Below are positions 8,990 through 17,686 of a DNA stretch of 64,000 bases, piece after piece (the first letter of the stretch is position 1; each line of letters starts with the position of its first letter). Both the position numbers and the translations under genes were made by a program. The DNA lies in contig CAVSBO010000005.1 in the NCBI GenBank assembly GCA_963726195.1, forward strand, positions 1 through 64,000. The letters are read 5' to 3'. The DNA is from Candidatus Thorarchaeota archaeon. Its GTDB lineage: Archaea > Asgardarchaeota > Thorarchaeia > Thorarchaeales > Thorarchaeaceae. The notes beneath the pieces are model-generated. The model saw only the letters and a program-made list of their open reading frames with translations, had not been told where the DNA came from and did no database searches.

Positions 8990-11892
8990 ATGAGTGAGTA
9001 CGTCAAGGTTGAGAAGAAATGGCAAAAGCGTTGGGAACAAGAAAGGATTTTCGAAGCTGACCCTGACCCGAAGAAGCCGAAGTTCTTCATCACTGTTCCA
9101 TATCCTTACACCAACGGCGCTCTGCATATCGGCCACGGCAGGACCTACACTATAGGCGACCTGATAGCTAGATACAAGCGCATGCGAGGATACAATGTTC
9201 TCTTTCCAATGGCATCGCACATGACGGGCACGCCAATCGTGGGAATGGTAGAAAGGATCAAGGCAGGCGACCATGATGCGATTGAACAGTACAAGCGAGA
9301 CTTGAGGCTCTATCTTGGCACTGAGGAAGAAGTAGATGCTCAGCTAAAGAAGTTCACAGATCCATGGGTCACGGCCAAGTTCTTCGCCGACGTAATCTCT
9401 GCAGATTTCAAGGCACTCGGCTACAGCATAGACTGGCGAAGGAAGTTCACAACAGGAGACCGGATTTACAATCAGTTCGTTACATGGCAGTATCATAAGT
9501 TCATGGACAAAGGCTACATTCGCCAGGGGGCCTACCCAATTCTGTACTGCCCTCATGACGGCAATCCTGTGGGCGAGGACGACCTGCTCAAAGGCGAAGA
9601 CGCCAAGATTAAAGAATTCACTGCGATCAAGTTTGGTTTTCAGGACGGATTTCTAGTTCCCGCGACACTGCGACCCGAAACCATCTTTGGTGTCACTAAC
9701 ATGTGGATAAACCCCAGTTCGACTTATGTCTGGGCGCGTGTCGACGGCGAGAAGTGGTTGATTTCACAAGCGGCGGCCGAGAAGCTGAAGCTGCAGGCAA
9801 AGAAGGTGGAGATTCTTGAGACCTTCCCGGGGCGAAAATCATCGGCAAGAAGTTTCGTGCTGTACATGACCAGCATGAGATGCCAATTCTCCCAGCTGAC
9901 TTCGTCGATGCAGACAACGCTACTGGTGTGGTCTACTCAGTTCCTGGGCACGCACCGTTCGACTACATAGCTCTGCGAAATCTCTGGGATAACCCATCAA
10001 GTGTAGCGAGGTTCGGAATATCCGCGGACAGTATTCGGGCCATCAAGATGATTGGCATGATTGCCATCGAAGGCTACGGCGAGTTTCCAGCAAAAGACAC
10101 AGTGGAGAAACGAGACATCAAGTCACAGGCTGAAGCGGAGAATCTCGAGGAGGCAACTCAGGAGATATACAAGGCAGAATTCTACAGCGGAGTAATGAAG
10201 GACAACTGCGGTCAGTTCTCGGGTCGTGCCATCAAGGATGTCAAGGATCAGGTTGTCGCATGGATGAAGTCGAAGAAACTCTGCGACGTTTTCTACGAGC
10301 CTGACCGACGCCCTGTTGTATGCAAGTGTGGAACCAATGTTCAGGTCGGCGTTTTTGCAGGTCAATGGTTTTTAGATTACCTCAGTCCAGGTTGGAAGGA
10401 AACGGCACGCCAAGCACTCGATACGATGTCAATAATCCCTGAAACGTTTAGGAATCAATTCGAAGCGACTTTCGATTGGCTGACCCAGAGACCTTGTGCC
10501 CGTAAGAGAGGCATAGGAACCAGACTCCCATTCGACCCTGACTGGATAATCGAATCACTGTCAGACTCAACGATCTACATGGCATTCTATACAATCGCCC
10601 ACAAGATAACTGGCAACAACCTGAAACCAGAACAGCTCACCCTGGGCTTCTTCGATTATGTGTTCTTGGGCAAGGGGACTCTGAAGGATGTCTCGAAGGA
10701 GACAGGAATAGAATCTACTCTGCTCAAGTCTATGCGTGAAGAGTTCCTCTATTGGTATCCCAACGATCAACGGCACACAGCCCCATCACACATATCGAAC
10801 CATCTCAGCTTCGCCATTTTTCATCACGTAGCCATATTTCCGAAGGAGCATTGGCTCAAGTGCATCAGTCTCAATGAGCACGTGAACATGGAAGGCATGA
10901 AGATGTCCAAAAGCAAGGGGAACGTAATCCCTCTTGTTGAGATTCCCAAGAAATACGGGGCAGATGTCTATCGAACCTACGTAGTATCGGCCGCAGAGCC
11001 CGGCACGCTCATGGATTGGCGAGAGAAAGATGTGCCCACCGTGAAGAGCAAGGTGAACCAGTTCACCGAGACAGTCAGCAAGTATGCGACCAAGGTTCCT
11101 CGTGTCTATACCAAGAAGGACAAGCCCACGATGATTACCCGCTGGCTGCTATCCAAGGTGAACACCATAGCCAAATCGTCAACAGATAGTCTTGATAGCT
11201 TCAAGCTGCGTGACTATGCATTACTGGTAATGTCGGAGATGCCACGCGTCGTCTCTTACTATCTGAATCGGACAGAGGTTCCAGCTGATGAGCAGCAGTC
11301 AACTTTGGCATATGTATGTGACATATGGGTTCGTCTGGCCGCACCTCTGGCGCCCCACATCTGCGAAGAGCTGTGGTCGAAGATGAAGCGTGAAGGATAC
11401 GTTTCACTAGCACCTTGGCCTGAGCCAGATCCCAAACTTATGGATCCGGCTGTCGAAGACGCACAGGCTGTTGTGGAGTCTACGATTCGTGACGTGCGAG
11501 AGATTGCGAAGCTCATGAAGGGCAAGAAGCCGAAGAAGGTTTACATCTATGTAGCCCCGGGATGGATGTTTGACGCCATGAAGAGTATCCGCGAAGCGAA
11601 TCTTCCAATCATAGTGGGCGACATCATGAAACACTTGATGTCGAGCCCTGAGTTCAAGCAATATGGCAAGGAAGTCAAGGGAATTGTAGACCGAATTGCA
11701 AAAGAGAACGGCCTCTGGGGTCATTCCGCAACTGCAAAGGACGAGCAGGATGTATTGAGGAGTTCGGCTTCGTACATGCAGTCTGAGCTCGGCATGGAAA
11801 TAGTCGTACGCTCAGCTGAGAAACCCGAGTACGATCCTCAGAACAAGGCGCGCTTCGCTCTGCCTGGAAGGGTATCGCTCTTCCTAGAATAG
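8990..11892 (+). CDS. leuS: Leucine--tRNA ligase, archaeal/eukaryotic type (frameshift at G run 9830-9833)
   Basis: PYPYTNGALHIGH (HIGH), TLRPETIFG, KMSKSKGN, C-terminal YDPQNKARFALPGR. One extra G joins TFPG to AKIIGKK...MPILPADFVD. Confidence 0.96.
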
Positions 11893-11919
11893 GTGTAGGC
11901 AAAGAACCCGATGGGGACT

Positions 11920-11996
11920 GTGACAGGCTGGCTCTTGCGAGAGCTGTCAGACCATGCCAAAGCTTTGAGGCTTAGTCTTCATTCGTCGCCTGTCAC
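11920..11996 (-). promoter_or_regulatory. Eukaryote-like SECIS element at the 3' end of vhuU
   Basis: Minus strand: AUGAA (11982-11978), GACUAAGCC, UC-AAA-GCUUU, GGCAUGGUC, UGAC (11949-11946). This gives a tandem GA core, a 9-bp upper stem and AAA 11 nt above the core. Outer helix GUGACAGGC (11996-11988) pairs with GCCUGUCAC (11928-11920). Confidence 0.8.
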
Positions 11997-12131
11997 GAGT
12001 TCTCTTTCTGCGATTATGTGCCCTTCATCGTCCACTATAGTGAGATGAGCGGCACACGATAGTCAGCAGTCATAGCACCGCACAACCATCTCAAGAAGGT
12101 TGAGCAGTCCTTCGTCGATATCCTCTTTCAT
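11979..12131 (-). CDS. vhuU: Selenocysteine-containing [NiFeSe] hydrogenase small peptide subunit VhuU (50 aa; Sec at codon 23, TGA 12063-12065)
   Basis: GGAGG RBS then ATG. Translation MKEDIDEGLLNLLEMVVRCYDC-U-LSCAAHLTIVDDEGHIIAERELVTGDE*. It supplies the L2 motif (D-x-U-x-x-C-x-x-H) missing from the upstream large subunit. Confidence 0.92.
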
Positions 12132-12142
12132 TCGTATCCTCC

Positions 12143-13456
12143 TTAGCTAATCATTGGTTTTGGAAACTTGAGCTTCTGGTGAACTTTCTGCTCAAACACC
12201 TGTTTCGCCACTTCCATGAGGCTCTTCTCGATGCCACCGATGTTGTTGTTTGTAGCCACAATCATGTTTGCCTTTGTGATGATGCCTCGCTCGTCAGTCC
12301 AATAGTGATGTATCAGGGTGCCTCTTGGCGCTTCCACGCAACCGACACCGTCTCCCTTCTTTGGTTTAACATCTAGAAGCTTGACATCTTTGCTCACAAT
12401 CTGGGGGTCCTTAAGCAAGCCTTCGATCTCTTCAATGGCTTGGACGAGCTCGATTATCCGGGCCCAGTGGTACGCGAATGTGGCATGGACTGGGTGACCG
12501 AGCTTGTCTCTCATCTCCTGCAACGCTTGCTGAGCGAGAGGAGTAGCCATTTTGTCGACTACATTGATTCGGGCTAACGAGCCAGCCCGCCATATGCCCG
12601 CAGGATATCCTGCTGGCTTGTAATAGACATGAGTCGCGTACGAGTGATCTGGTACATACTCTGCGAAGGACTTGCGGTAGTCCTTTGACTTTACATCTTC
12701 AACGACGCCGCCCGTGGGGTCCATAATCCGAATACTACCATCGTAGATCTCGAGAGCGCCCTTGCTGTGTGTCCCGATGTAGTACGTGGGTCCGATGGCA
12801 ATCTTTGTGATGACATCTGTGTAATCATCCATGATTTTCTTTGCTAGAGAAACGGTACTTACTGTCCATTGTTTTACATCGCCAATCCGTTTCAGGAACT
12901 GGTCCCGCTTCTCCTCGGAAAAGGGATTGAGCATTCCTCCGGGCACGGCAGTGACAGGATGGATTGCAGTTCCGCCGATTGCCGCAGCAAGTTCTTGGCC
13001 GAATTGCATCATCTGCAGCGCCATCTTGCTCACGTCAGGTAGTGCCTTGGTTATGGCAACTAAGTTTCTTTTTGCAGGATCTCCAAAGGGTCCGGCCAAG
13101 AAATCAGGAGCGGCCAGAGCGAAGAAGTGAAGCGAATGACTACTGAACTGCTTCGCGTTAATCAGAAGTCTTCTCAGTTTCACAGCTGGCGCTGGAGGAG
13201 TCACATCCCAAGCTGCCTCAACTGCCTTCACTGCGGCTAGATGGTGAGGTTCGGGACAGATACCGCAGATTCTTGATGCGAGCTTCGGGGCCTCCTCAGC
13301 GAATCTTCCTTCAAGGAATTTCTCGAAGAACCGCGTGGAGGTGACATTGAACTGTGCGTCCTTGACCTTCCCATCCTTTCCAATCTTGATTGTTATGTCG
13401 CCATGACCCTCAAGCCTAGTGACAGGCTCAATCTTGACTATCTTCTCCCCCGTCAC
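12143..13456 (-). CDS. vhuA: F420-non-reducing [NiFe(Se)] hydrogenase large subunit (group 3c), split form lacking the C-terminal L2 motif
   Basis: IEPVTRLEGHG, L1 motif RICGICPEPHH, VEAPRGTLIHHY; ends without DPCxxC. Confidence 0.93.
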   Translation of the reverse strand: MTGEKIVKIEPVTRLEGHGDITIKIGKDGKVKDAQFNVTSTRFFEKFLEGRFAEEAPKLASRICGICPEPHHLAAVKAVEAAWDVTPPAPAVKLRRLLINAKQFSSHSLHFFALAAPDFLAGPFGDPAKRNLVAITKALPDVSKMALQMMQFGQELAAAIGGTAIHPVTAVPGGMLNPFSEEKRDQFLKRIGDVKQWTVSTVSLAKKIMDDYTDVITKIAIGPTYYIGTHSKGALEIYDGSIRIMDPTGGVVEDVKSKDYRKSFAEYVPDHSYATHVYYKPAGYPAGIWRAGSLARINVVDKMATPLAQQALQEMRDKLGHPVHATFAYHWARIIELVQAIEEIEGLLKDPQIVSKDVKLLDVKPKKGDGVGCVEAPRGTLIHHYWTDERGIITKANMIVATNNNIGGIEKSLMEVAKQVFEQKVHQKLKFPKPMIS

Positions 13457-14364
13457 TTCTTCTTGCTCCTTGCCTTGTCACGCATCCTAGAGAGATAGGA
13501 CGCCGCGTAGTCTGTGAAGTAGAATGAGCCGATAGGATCCGGGAAGGATTCCGTAAGCTGCTCTGGTTCCATTTCGGCTATTGCACCTAGGGCTGATATG
13601 ATCTTAGCACCATGGTCCTTGACCCTAGTGACCGGGCCAAAGCATCCCTTGCACGGCGAATTCACGGTCGGACAGATGGCTCCACAGAATCCAATGGTTG
13701 CGAATCCAAGACAAAGGTATCCTTGGTCCAACAGGCACTTGCTCGGATCGATTTTGCCTTCGTAGCTCCTGTGGAACTTCGAAACATGCTTGTCTTGCTT
13801 CACTTTTGGGCACTGGTCGCATACGCTCTTTTCAGGAAGGTCGAAGGGCTTCCCGGAAAGGATTGCAGACAGTGCCTCGACGATATTCTTGCTTGTCGGC
13901 GGGCAACCTGGCAGCATAATGTTGAACTGAACCACATCGACGTTCGGCCGCACATGCGACACAAAAGCGGGCACGTTTTCTGAAGGCACCCGGGGGTCGG
14001 TCACTGTATCTGCTTTCATGAATTTCCTGTCAACCAACTCGTCAAGCTCCCATTGGTTGGCAAGACCATGTATGCCACCGTAGCAGGAACAGACTCCCCA
14101 CGCAACCAAGATTTTACTCTTGGCTCTCATAATGTTGAGCAAGCGCACGTCATCTTCTGTCCTGCAGCTTCCTTCGACAAGACCGATGTGTATTGACTCG
14201 TCAGGCATTGATTCGAGGTCCTTAATCTTGAAGTCGACGACCGCAGGCCAAAACACTATCTCTAGTTCGGGCAGCAGCTCGAGAAGGCCCAGATGCAAAT
14301 CCAAGAGAGACTGATCGCATCCCCAACAGGAGGTCAGCTGGGCCATGGCAATGCGCTTGGTCAT
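13453..14364 (-). CDS. vhuG: F420-non-reducing hydrogenase small (Fe-S) subunit
   Basis: SCWGCD, VEGSC, GVCSCYGGI, PGCPP, CDQC, CLLDQGYLCLG, PCKGCFGP. Confidence 0.93.
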   Translation of the reverse strand: MTKRIAMAQLTSCWGCDQSLLDLHLGLLELLPELEIVFWPAVVDFKIKDLESMPDESIHIGLVEGSCRTEDDVRLLNIMRAKSKILVAWGVCSCYGGIHGLANQWELDELVDRKFMKADTVTDPRVPSENVPAFVSHVRPNVDVVQFNIMLPGCPPTSKNIVEALSAILSGKPFDLPEKSVCDQCPKVKQDKHVSKFHRSYEGKIDPSKCLLDQGYLCLGFATIGFCGAICPTVNSPCKGCFGPVTRVKDHGAKIISALGAIAEMEPEQLTESFPDPIGSFYFTDYAASYLSRMRDKARSKKK

Positions 14365-14370
14365 GTTCTG

Positions 14371-14847
14371 TTAGTCCTTCCTTGCGGGGTTTGGTCCCAG
14401 TTCCTTGATGCGCTCGACCATCGACGTGACGCCCTCAGTGAAGACATCGCCTTCCGCGGCACTCGCCCACTGCAGATGAATCCTGTCCGGTTCGACGCCT
14501 GCTTCTTCTAGCGTCTTCTGAAGAAGGGCGAAGCGCGACTTCATCTTCAGATTGCCGCTCGTGTAGTGACAATCGCCGGGGTGACAGCCAGAAATCAACA
14601 CTCCATCCGCGCCTTGGCTAAGAGCGTCTAAGATGAACCCGGGATCCACGCGGCCTGTGCAATTGACTCGGATGATGCGCACGTTCGGAGGCATTTGCCT
14701 TCTGCTGGTGCCTGCGAGGTCTGCACCTGCGTATGAGCACCAGTTGCAGCAGAAAGCCAGGATCCGTGGTTCGAAGTCACTCTCTCCTCGAGATTTCTGC
14801 CTCTGACTGCTGGTCGCCTTGTGACCGGCTGCCGTCAATCTGTTCAT
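14371..14847 (-). CDS. mvhD: Hydrogenase iron-sulfur subunit MvhD/VhuD (Cys form); start uncertain
   Basis: FEPRILAFCCNWCSYAGAD, RVNCTGRVD, GADGVLISGCHPGDCHY. The homologous part begins near 14783. Confidence 0.92.
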   Translation of the reverse strand: MNRLTAAGHKATSSQRQKSRGESDFEPRILAFCCNWCSYAGADLAGTSRRQMPPNVRIIRVNCTGRVDPGFILDALSQGADGVLISGCHPGDCHYTSGNLKMKSRFALLQKTLEEAGVEPDRIHLQWASAAEGDVFTEGVTSMVERIKELGPNPARKD

Positions 14848-15034
14848 GACCCCCGTGGGCAACGAAGCCCGGAGTCTCTGTAATCTAATTAAGATTCCTG
14901 ATTTCAGAAGCGCTCCTGTGCACCGAGTGTCGTTCTCCACTCGTGTGCCATCCCGGCCGGAGGCTTCAAGACAGCTGCTTTTATTATCGGAATTGCTCTC
15001 GTCTTTCTTGGCTCTGTGAGACTCTGGGTGTGTG

Positions 15035-15277
15035 ATGGCAGTGGTGCTTGCGTTCATCATGGCGAAAGTCGAGTCTTCTAAATCACGTGAGGTTCTGAAT
15101 CGTGTGAAGAAGCTAGAAGGGGTTCAGGAAGCCTACATCATCTATGGAGCTTACAACCTACTCCTGAAAGCATTATTCAAGACACCTGAGGCTCTGAGTT
15201 CTTTTGTTGTGGACACCCTGAGAAAGATTGACGGAATTCGCGATACTGTTACGAATGTCTGTGCTACTTGCGACTAG
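15035..15277 (+). CDS. Lrp/AsnC ligand-binding (RAM) domain protein
   Basis: ~80 aa, GVQEAYIIYGAYNLLLK...LRKIDGIRDTVT pattern. Confidence 0.85.
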   Translation: MAVVLAFIMAKVESSKSREVLNRVKKLEGVQEAYIIYGAYNLLLKALFKTPEALSSFVVDTLRKIDGIRDTVTNVCATCD

Positions 15278-15310: not shown

Positions 15311-17198
15311 TCACCGCCGTGCCAGAACACTGCCTTCTCGTTCAAGGGCGAGTCTCTTCAAGGTGCCTTTTGTTGGCAGTCCGCTCTTCAAATCCCATCC
15401 CCTGTGAGAATAGTACTCATTCAACATCAAGTCCAACTCGACAACCTGACCCTTCGAAGGACCTGTCGGGGCCTCTTCCTTTACCAACCTGTCAGGAAGA
15501 ACATCGTCATCCCGCGTGATTCCAAATCTGGCATTGAACAGACGATTCAGGTTGACAATTCGTTCTCCGATTGTCTTGAGTTCCTTTACCGTGAAGTTCA
15601 GTCCATTGTGAATCCTCAAGGCTAGGGCCACATCATCATAGTAGAACTCCGGGGGAATCTGTGTACCATATTTGCATAGGCCGACACTCTCCACGACGAC
15701 CATGTAATCCTCGCACTCTTTGACCATTATGCCCTTGTAAGTTGGATTCAGTCTGTCTGCCATCTGAGGTAGGTATTTGTCACCAAAGCGTTTTCTTATC
15801 TCGTCATCGAAGCCGACCTCATCAAGAACTGGAAATGAATAGAGATGGTCAGCCCCTCTTGCCGCCGTGACAGCGGCGAGCCCCATTGATTTCTGGGCTC
15901 GCGGTTCCTGTCCTGCGATTTCCTGTTTCTTCACAGCCATGACGAACTTTTCACTCCCACGCCCTGTTTTCTGAGCGGCCCCAAAGCTTCCTTCAGCGAG
16001 CCTGTCTCCGAATCCCTTCCTGAAAGCAATCATCTCAGTAAGCTTCACTATTGACTCATGATTACCCCAGCTGAGGTCTATCCCTCCAGTGTCCTTGGCC
16101 GTGAGGATTCCCTTCTCCCAAGCCTCCATGGCCCAAGCGATGGTGCCCCCGAGCGATATTGTATCAATTCCATACTTGTTTGCGAGATGATGGCTGTAGA
16201 GAATTGATTCTATGTTATCATTGCCGCAGCGTGACCCTAATGCCGCCAGACTCTCAAACTCTGGGGATCCACCTGTGTATGCATACGGGCCATCCGATAC
16301 CGACGTGAAGCGACCGCATCTTTGAAGGCAACTCCAATCTGCCCTGGGCTTGATGAGGTATCCTCGGTTGATGGCATGACCGCCTATCTTCTCGTAGCCA
16401 TCGAACACGCCTTGCTGCATGTTGTAGGTGGGCAGACGTCCGATATGCTGCATCAATTCGATCAGACTTGTCGTACCAAACTCGGCGCGGCCGCTCGTGA
16501 AGGGATTAGCAAGCATTCTCTTGTACAACTCGTCCATGTGTTTGAGGTAGTTTACAGGATCAGCAACATCGAGCTTTCCGGTGCCCCGTACACAAATGGC
16601 CTTGAGTTTCTTGAAACCCATCACTGCACCGAGACCTGAACGAGCAGAGGCCCGGTCTCTGTCGTTCATTATAGCGGCAAAGCGAACAAGATTCTCGCCT
16701 GCTTGACCGATGGAAAGGACCCTTGATCTGCCTGCCGTGTTTGGTTCTCAGAATCCCATCGGTCTCAAAGACGTCCTTGTCCCAAATCCCAGTAGCATCT
16801 AGTAGCTCTACCTTTGAGTCCTCAATGTGAAGATATACGGGTCTGTCCGAAGCCCCTGTGAAGATCATTGCATCGTAACCTGCGAATTTGAGCTCAGGAC
16901 CCCAGAAACCGGCAGCATGGCTTTCGCCCCATATCCCCGTAAGTGGAGATAGAGCGGCTATCACATGCCTCGAAGATTGAGGGAACATCGAGCCCGTGAG
17001 CAATCCAGTTGCAAAGCCCAAGACATTCTCGGCGGACAGTGGTTCAGTGCCTTCCGGAATCCCATCGAAGAGCATCTTTGATAGGAATCCGGCCCCTAGC
17101 AGGTACTTGCGAATCATATTCTCGTCTAGTGGTTTCTTTTCGATTGCCCCACTTGTCAGGTCGATGTGAAGCGTCTGGCCGCCTACGCCCTTTATCAC
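15311..17198 (-). CDS. Aldehyde:ferredoxin oxidoreductase (tungsten AOR) family protein 1 (frameshift at 16720-16722)
   Basis: SPLTGIWGESHAAG, GQAGENLVRFA, ARSGLGAVMG.KKLKAI, GSPEFES, DTISLG, RGADH, LNEYYSHRGWD. Removing one G joins the two ORFs. Confidence 0.92.
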
Positions 17199-17686
17199 AG
17201 GAACTCCCCCTTAGAATACAACTCTTTCTTATGCTTATCATAGAGCAAAGCAATTCTGTTGTCTCTATCCCTCTCCTTGAGATCTTTGTCGGTGGTAATC
17301 CATATTGCATTGACAGGACATCGCTTCACACACTCGCCACATGCTATGCACTTGATGGCTTTGTTAGAATCCGGATTGATGGAGATGGCATCGTATGGAC
17401 AAACCTTGACGCATGCGCCACAGCCGGTGCATTTTGCATTGTTTACGGTCACGATTCCCTTCGACGTGCGCGCTATCGCATCCTCTGGGCACGCATCCTT
17501 GCATGGAGCATCCTCACAGTTACGACAGAATAATGGGAAGTCCAACCCGTCTTCGAAGCGCATAACTCTGACTCTGGACCGGGTCGGACCCAGTACCTTG
17601 AAGTAGAACATGCTGCAGACGTTGGCACAGATCATGCAGCCGGTGCATGCCATTGGGTCACCGAAGACGAACTTGAGGTCGGGCAT
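17195..17686 (-). CDS. 4Fe-4S dicluster (DmsB/HycB-like) electron-transfer subunit of AOR
   Basis: Four CxxCxxC...CP-type cluster motifs. Confidence 0.9.
   Translation of the reverse strand: MPDLKFVFGDPMACTGCMICANVCSMFYFKVLGPTRSRVRVMRFEDGLDFPLFCRNCEDAPCKDACPEDAIARTSKGIVTVNNAKCTGCGACVKVCPYDAISINPDSNKAIKCIACGECVKRCPVNAIWITTDKDLKERDRDNRIALLYDKHKKELYSKGEFL

Follow-up and report, generated by a model that had tools for sequence, protein, structure and literature searches.

Among the closest described relatives of the gene considered here are the VhuU selenoproteins of Lokiarchaeia, proteins of around 50 aa with a single selenocysteine (Sec), which are encoded with a eukaryote-like SECIS element whose AUGA core can double as the stop codon (Mariotti 2016, PMC4989117). 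In the available part of a broader account (Huang 2024, PMC11227280), the Sec trait is given for 77% of Thorarchaeia and the FrhA/MvhA/VhuU selenoprotein family for 68% of Sec-using Asgard genomes, with G[U/G]AAA as a Thorarchaeial variant of the SECIS loop, and a VhuU of about 50 aa is also listed in a paper of 2024 about Asgard archaea from soil. Here, we describe a vhuU locus from a Candidatus Thorarchaeota archaeon, lying in a window of 64,000 nucleotides (contig CAVSBO010000005.1, positions 1 to 64,000) whose numbering is used for all positions without a contig name. Judged from conservation, RNA structure and gene content, the stretch 11979-12131 is very probably a genuine vhuU selenoprotein gene, provided with a SECIS element and a complete decoding system. 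The protein-coding part of the locus comprises the following features.

14371-15060, minus strand: mvhD/vhuD, a 229-aa ORF with an FlpD domain at residues 100-222 (Pfam PF02662, E 1.3e-54)
13453-14364, minus strand: vhuG/mvhG, the hydrogenase small (Fe-S) subunit (Pfam PF01058, E 4.7e-21)
12143-13456, minus strand: vhuA, a 437-aa large subunit (PF00374) without the C-terminal Ni-binding motif
12138-12142, minus strand: GGAGG ribosome-binding site read in the sequence, 6 nt 5' of the vhuU ATG
11979-12131, minus strand: coding region of vhuU, with 50 codons closed by a TGA stop, read from the sequence and from alignment
12063-12065, minus strand: UGA codon 23, read as Sec and as the terminal Ni ligand from the MvhA/9sfi_M alignment and conservation
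11979-12041, minus strand: 21-residue C-terminal extension past His29 plus the stop codon, a predicted maturation peptide by homology to the FrhA tail

From upstream to downstream, the operon runs mvhD, vhuG, vhuA and vhuU. Its domain content points to a group-3c Mvh/Vhu-type, F420-non-reducing hydrogenase, as PF02662, PF01058 and PF00374 occur together in one operon, the N-terminal RxCGxCxxxH motif of VhuA reads RICGICPEPHH (Cys64/Cys67), and Vhu and Mvh are the best relatives with solved structures. The C-terminal DPCxxCxxH motif is absent from VhuA, and the same truncation is seen in 120/120 VhuA homologues among the matches listed, 119 of them 434-445 aa long and one a 389-aa fragment; the closest of these listed matches are named Candidatus Thorarchaeota. 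Residues 7-421 of VhuA align to residues 4-417 of the 418 in 9sfi_g (E 6e-123), a chain of the Methanococcus maripaludis Hdr-Vhu-Fwd structure, whose hydrogenase is VhuADGU, and the protein also aligns to residues 5-417 of the 473 in the unsplit MvhA, 5odc_F. VhuU residues 3-31 align to residues 422-450 of that same chain (RAYDPCLSCATH), and residues 5-30 to the 27-residue 9sfi_M, which reads RAYDPXYSCAAHM with X as Sec (E 4.1e-5). The predicted VhuA and VhuU together match one unsplit MvhA.

The gene mvhD, which the available part of PMC11227280 counts among the selenoprotein families of other Asgard genomes, was considered as a further selenoprotein of this operon and ruled out: the FlpD domain motif is AFCCNWCSYAG, with Cys, and the domain has no in-frame TGA. 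The start of the same ORF (14761-15060, minus strand) encodes a low-complexity N-terminal extension of about 100 residues, which the contig 3 paralogue, of 158 aa, lacks, and the true mvhD start is probably further downstream than the annotated one.

The vhuU gene opens with an ATG at 12131 and closes with a TGA at 11981-11979, with the His as residue 29 on inspection of the sequence, and its translation reads MKEDIDEGLLNLLEMVVRCYDC-TGA-LSCAAH-LTIVDDEGHIIAERELVTGDE-TGA. The sequence-only reading of this DNA had placed here a 50-codon ORF with UGA-LSCAAH behind a GGAGG, downstream of a vhuA (12143-13456) that stops without its C-terminal metal motif; each element is present, and VhuA does end in ...KFPKPMIS, followed by a TAA stop. 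It had also remarked that vhuU is missing from the ORF list, and this is so because translation table 11 gives an ORF of only 22 codons, which goes unlisted. Its placing of the UGA at the Ni-ligand position agrees with the alignment of this codon with the Cys of DPCLSC in MvhA and with the X of 9sfi_M. The motif that it quoted, RAYDPUxSCAAH, fits at the Sec/Cys position and fails at D-P-U, which is D-C-U here. As for the proposal that the 21-residue tail is a maturation peptide, the tail past His29 aligns with the C-terminal extension of FrhA (3zfs_A residues 373-403), homologous to the extension cleaved from FrhA/MvhA, and a gene for a HycI-family endopeptidase (maturation protease) is found on contig 16, so that the proposal stands as a prediction. 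The tail measures 20-22 aa in the orthologues compared, apart from one distant sequence of the Lokiarchaeial family, where it reaches 28 aa.

The 3' end of vhuU carries two RNA features.

11942-11982, minus strand: eukaryote-like (Loki-type) SECIS, from its fold, covariation and model specificity
11925-11941, minus strand: a short G+C hairpin that reads GCUCU-CGCA-AGAGC and follows directly on the SECIS

The AUGA of the SECIS, at 11982-11979, includes the vhuU stop codon, and the Sec UGA lies 83 nt 5' of it. The stem has 10 bp with one A-A mismatch (arms 11978-11969 and 11958-11949) and closes a 10-nt apical loop, UCAAAGCUUU, at 11968-11959, with GA following at 11948-11947; a minimum-free-energy fold recovers this stem (-18.8 kcal/mol, z = -2.27). 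These are the characters of the lokiSECIS, namely an AUGA core, a stem of 9-11 bp, a loop of 10-12 nt with an A-run, GA or AA on the 3' side and a position at the stop codon or just past it, whereas a methanococcal-type element would show a short G-C helix with a GAA/A internal loop beneath it in place of the conserved AUGA...GA core found here. An A precedes the stop codon, giving AUGA, in 42 of 45 loci, with U or C in the other three; among 27 distinct Thorarchaeial sequences the AUGA is present in 27/27, the loop AAA is invariant and, in the 3' GA, the G is kept in more than 90% and the A in all. Across the alignment, 84% of stem cells are paired, compared with 18-47% when the partners are slid, and 40 cells have changed on both sides compared with 14.4 +/- 3.0 in shuffles (0/500). 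Across the 2.9-Mb genome, a covariance model made from the Thorarchaeial alignment hits strongly at exactly two places, which are the 3' ends of the two vhuU genes (E about 1e-9). An Rfam scan of 11700-12300 at E <= 10 returned no SECIS family, just chance snoRNA-like hits, as is expected since the element is of the Asgard eukaryote-like type.

The same covariance model gave a third, weak hit on contig 3 (110397-110437, E 0.64), some 1.1 kb past the second vhuU. This was rejected as a SECIS: it resembles a vhuU 3' end, yet its stem no longer pairs, and the sequence is probably a decayed duplicate of such an end. The short hairpin beside the SECIS recurs at the same place in 41 vhuU 3' ends of the Thor and Loki types, usually in the form CCC(C/U)-GCAA-GGG at 2-4 nt past the SECIS. 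Of its cells 86% are paired, and its outer pairs covary modestly; the hairpin does not feature in the SECIS models published in the available parts of PMC4989117 and PMC11227280.

The machinery for Sec decoding lies elsewhere in the genome. A single cluster on contig 13 (130.5-134.9 kb) holds the genes for SelB/EFSec, SepSecS, an NF045535 protein, tRNA-Sec and PSTK. The SelB/EFSec has an aSelB_III domain and a sub-threshold match to the eEFSec fourth domain, SepSecS is matched at E 6.5e-102 to 7.6e-102, and the tRNA-Sec, with anticodon UCA, scores 57.7 bits over a cut-off of 47 and aligns across the 9-bp acceptor stem of the model. The gene selD, found on contig 7, has a single in-frame TGA of its own. 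With tRNA-Sec(UCA), PSTK, SepSecS, EFSec/SelB and SelD in the same genome, the archaeal/eukaryotic Sec-decoding trait is complete, and all five components looked for to check the earlier claim that this organism should recode UGA as Sec have been found. Between SepSecS and tRNA-Sec (contig 13, 133250-133897) lies a 216-aa gene without a Pfam hit, adjoining tRNA-Sec in 16 of the 18 Thorarchaeial loci checked. It was considered as a possible new SECIS factor and set aside, as it already corresponds, at 189.9 bits, to NCBIfam NF045535 ('putative selenocysteine system protein') and has distant homologues in Asgard families that lack VhuU, away from any adjoining tRNA-Sec; judged from these matches, the gene is neither new nor clearly Sec-specific.

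A second Vhu locus on contig 3 (103000-109350) contains two hdrA-like genes, mvhD, mvhG, vhuA and vhuU. Its vhuA is broken by a +1 frameshift into 101 and 341 aa, and its vhuU (109158-109307) is intact, with the same TGA and its own SECIS. The assembly itself is metagenome-style, in 19 contigs and 88.9% complete. Further interrupted genes occur in the window: a class I (Ile/Leu/Val-type) aminoacyl-tRNA synthetase at 8990-11892 on the plus strand is split into ORFs in different frames (8990-9970 and 9880-11892), and as this is an essential gene the frameshift suggests an indel error in the assembly. On the minus strand, an aldehyde:ferredoxin oxidoreductase (AFOR, 15311-17198) has a frameshift near 16700-16724, so that 16560-17198 holds AFOR_N and 15311-16669 the last part of AFOR_N together with AFOR_C; directly upstream of it is a 4Fe-4S ferredoxin gene (17195-17686). 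With the synthetase, the oxidoreductase and the second vhuA all frameshifted, base-level accuracy is not guaranteed, and the errors seen are indels, not substitutions.

How the in-frame TGA of vhuU is to be read can be judged from its conservation. The sequence-only reading had proposed a protein search for vhuU in archaeal genomes; made with read-through of stop codons, such a search found VhuU in 70 of 87 genomes of the class and in 207 of 400 genomes of the phylum. At class level, all near-full-length matches but one have exactly one in-frame TGA, the exception being a natural Cys form, DCCLSCSAF, and at phylum level a single in-frame TGA is found in 149/150 among the matches listed. In 45 orthologous loci inspected the motif is RCYDCULSC(A/G)AH, with one RNY and a few CFD variants as exceptions. 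Past the TGA, the residues L, S, C, A and H are invariant in 43 distinct sequences, each through 2-5 different codons, and such constancy of residues with synonymous codon turnover argues for translation through the TGA; on this comparison, the reading frame past the TGA is under purifying selection. In a public protein collection (5.8 billion clusters), the family is represented by only nine small clusters, eight of which are Cys forms (DCC), while the ninth reads DRW at the Sec position and possibly comes from a gene caller that took TGA as Trp. The near absence of the Sec form from public protein sets follows from standard gene callers stopping at TGA.

These observations can be weighed against other readings of the codon. 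A genome-wide reassignment of TGA is ruled out, as TGA is the commonest stop codon of this genome and closes 547 of 1210 long open frames. Were the TGA instead a true stop, vhuU would be a 22-codon remnant in a decaying gene set and the hydrogenase inactive, a reading that would suit the table 11 ORF, which ends at codon 23, and the several frameshifted genes of the genome, the paralogous vhuA included; with the frame past the TGA maintained through synonymous change, the same layout in 207 genomes, and both a SECIS with covariation and the complete Sec machinery present, we regard it as extremely improbable. The indel-type errors in no fewer than three of the assembly's genes could be taken to favour a sequencing or assembly error in a Cys codon (TGC or TGT), but TGA stands at the same codon in 45/45 orthologues inspected in other genomes, as well as in the second vhuU copy, and a SECIS would be pointless beside a Cys codon, so that an error at this position is next to inconceivable. 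It may also be asked whether the UGA is decoded, wholly or in part, as something other than Sec, for instance as Cys through the Sec pathway at low selenium or by near-cognate read-through, and the natural Cys-form VhuU paralogues within the class indicate that Cys is tolerated at this position. Against this, the dedicated machinery is intact, down to a Sec-containing SelD, and TGA has been kept without drift to TGC or TGT in nearly all lineages, which argues that Sec itself is selected; we consider non-Sec decoding highly unlikely.

With Sec as the preferred reading, a scheme for the enzyme can be proposed, in which we infer Sec insertion at codon 23, cleavage of the tail and coupling to Hdr-type electron bifurcation. 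VhuA would supply Cys64 and Cys67 as the two N-terminal ligands of the metal site, and VhuU the two C-terminal ones, Sec23 as terminal Ni ligand and Cys26 as bridging ligand. For codon 23, Ser-tRNA-Sec would be acted on by PSTK and then by SepSecS with selenophosphate from SelD, and the resulting Sec-tRNA would be delivered to the UGA by the archaeal SelB/EFSec, with recoding directed by the eukaryote-like, kink-turn SECIS 83 nt downstream. Since the AUGA core of that SECIS contains the UGA stop of vhuU, the second UGA would terminate translation. A HycI-type endopeptidase would then cut past His29 after Ni insertion, freeing the 21-residue tail.

The least-described detail of Asgard VhuU is an invariant Cys-Sec pair. 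The motif R-C-Y-D-C-U-L-S-C (12054-12077, minus strand) has two extra Cys residues in place of the usual Ala and Pro. The second of these, directly before the Sec/Cys ligand, is invariant, with DCU in 45/45 Asgard Sec forms and DCC in eight Cys forms, and the first (R-C-Y) is replaced by Asn in one of the 45 Sec forms. Cys before the Sec, where Pro is near-universal elsewhere, was counted as a point against the vhuU reading. The pair is not mentioned in the available parts of the Asgard selenoproteome papers (PMC4989117, PMC11227280). We suggest, as a tentative and rather unlikely idea prompted by this conservation, that the two residues might be joined in a reversible selenenylsulfide and so protect or gate the [NiFeSe] centre, or might alter maturation; if true, such a variant of active-site chemistry would have no described counterpart among characterised hydrogenases.

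As VhuU selenoproteins and stop-overlapping SECIS elements have been published for Lokiarchaeia and Thorarchaeia (in the available parts of PMC4989117 and PMC11227280), the present case is not new; the vhuU identified here is correct, but both its kind and its occurrence in this lineage were known before, and it is hidden only from standard gene callers. Its practical importance lies in annotation, which when automatic makes the Vhu hydrogenases of Thorarchaeia look catalytically incomplete; once vhuU is recognised, the metabolic reconstruction of H2 cycling in Thorarchaeial (Asgard) archaea is corrected.

Compared with known systems, the locus stands close to the Loki- and Thorarchaeial VhuU ('FrhA family'), with which it shares a length of about 50 aa, one Sec and a lokiSECIS whose AUGA overlaps the UGA stop. 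It differs only in small details, as GA, not AA, follows the stem, and the apical loop starts UCAAA whereas G[U/G]AAA is typical of Thorarchaeia in the available part of PMC11227280. The VhuU of Methanococcus (M. voltae, and VhuADGU of M. maripaludis, 9sfi chain M) is likewise a separate small gene directly past a truncated vhuA, and Sec at the first ligand position, in xUxSCAAH, is common to both. There, however, the motif is R-A-Y-D-P-U and not R-C-Y-D-C-U, the SECIS is of the GAA_A type and not the eukaryote-like AUGA...GA type, and the mvhD of our locus also differs from VhuADGU in having Cys, without a TGA. The unsplit, Cys-type MvhA of Methanothermococcus thermolithotrophicus (5odc chain F) is the same group-3c enzyme made as one polypeptide, which has Cys in DPCLSCATH and needs no recoding, whereas the protein described here is split and has Sec. 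In the bacterial periplasmic [NiFeSe] hydrogenases (2wpn, 3ze6), Sec likewise replaces the terminal Cys ligand of Ni, but the large subunit is unsplit and just its N-terminal part aligns with the present one (residues 2-199). Bacterial SECIS elements lie inside the coding region, and bacteria use SelA and a bacterial SelB.
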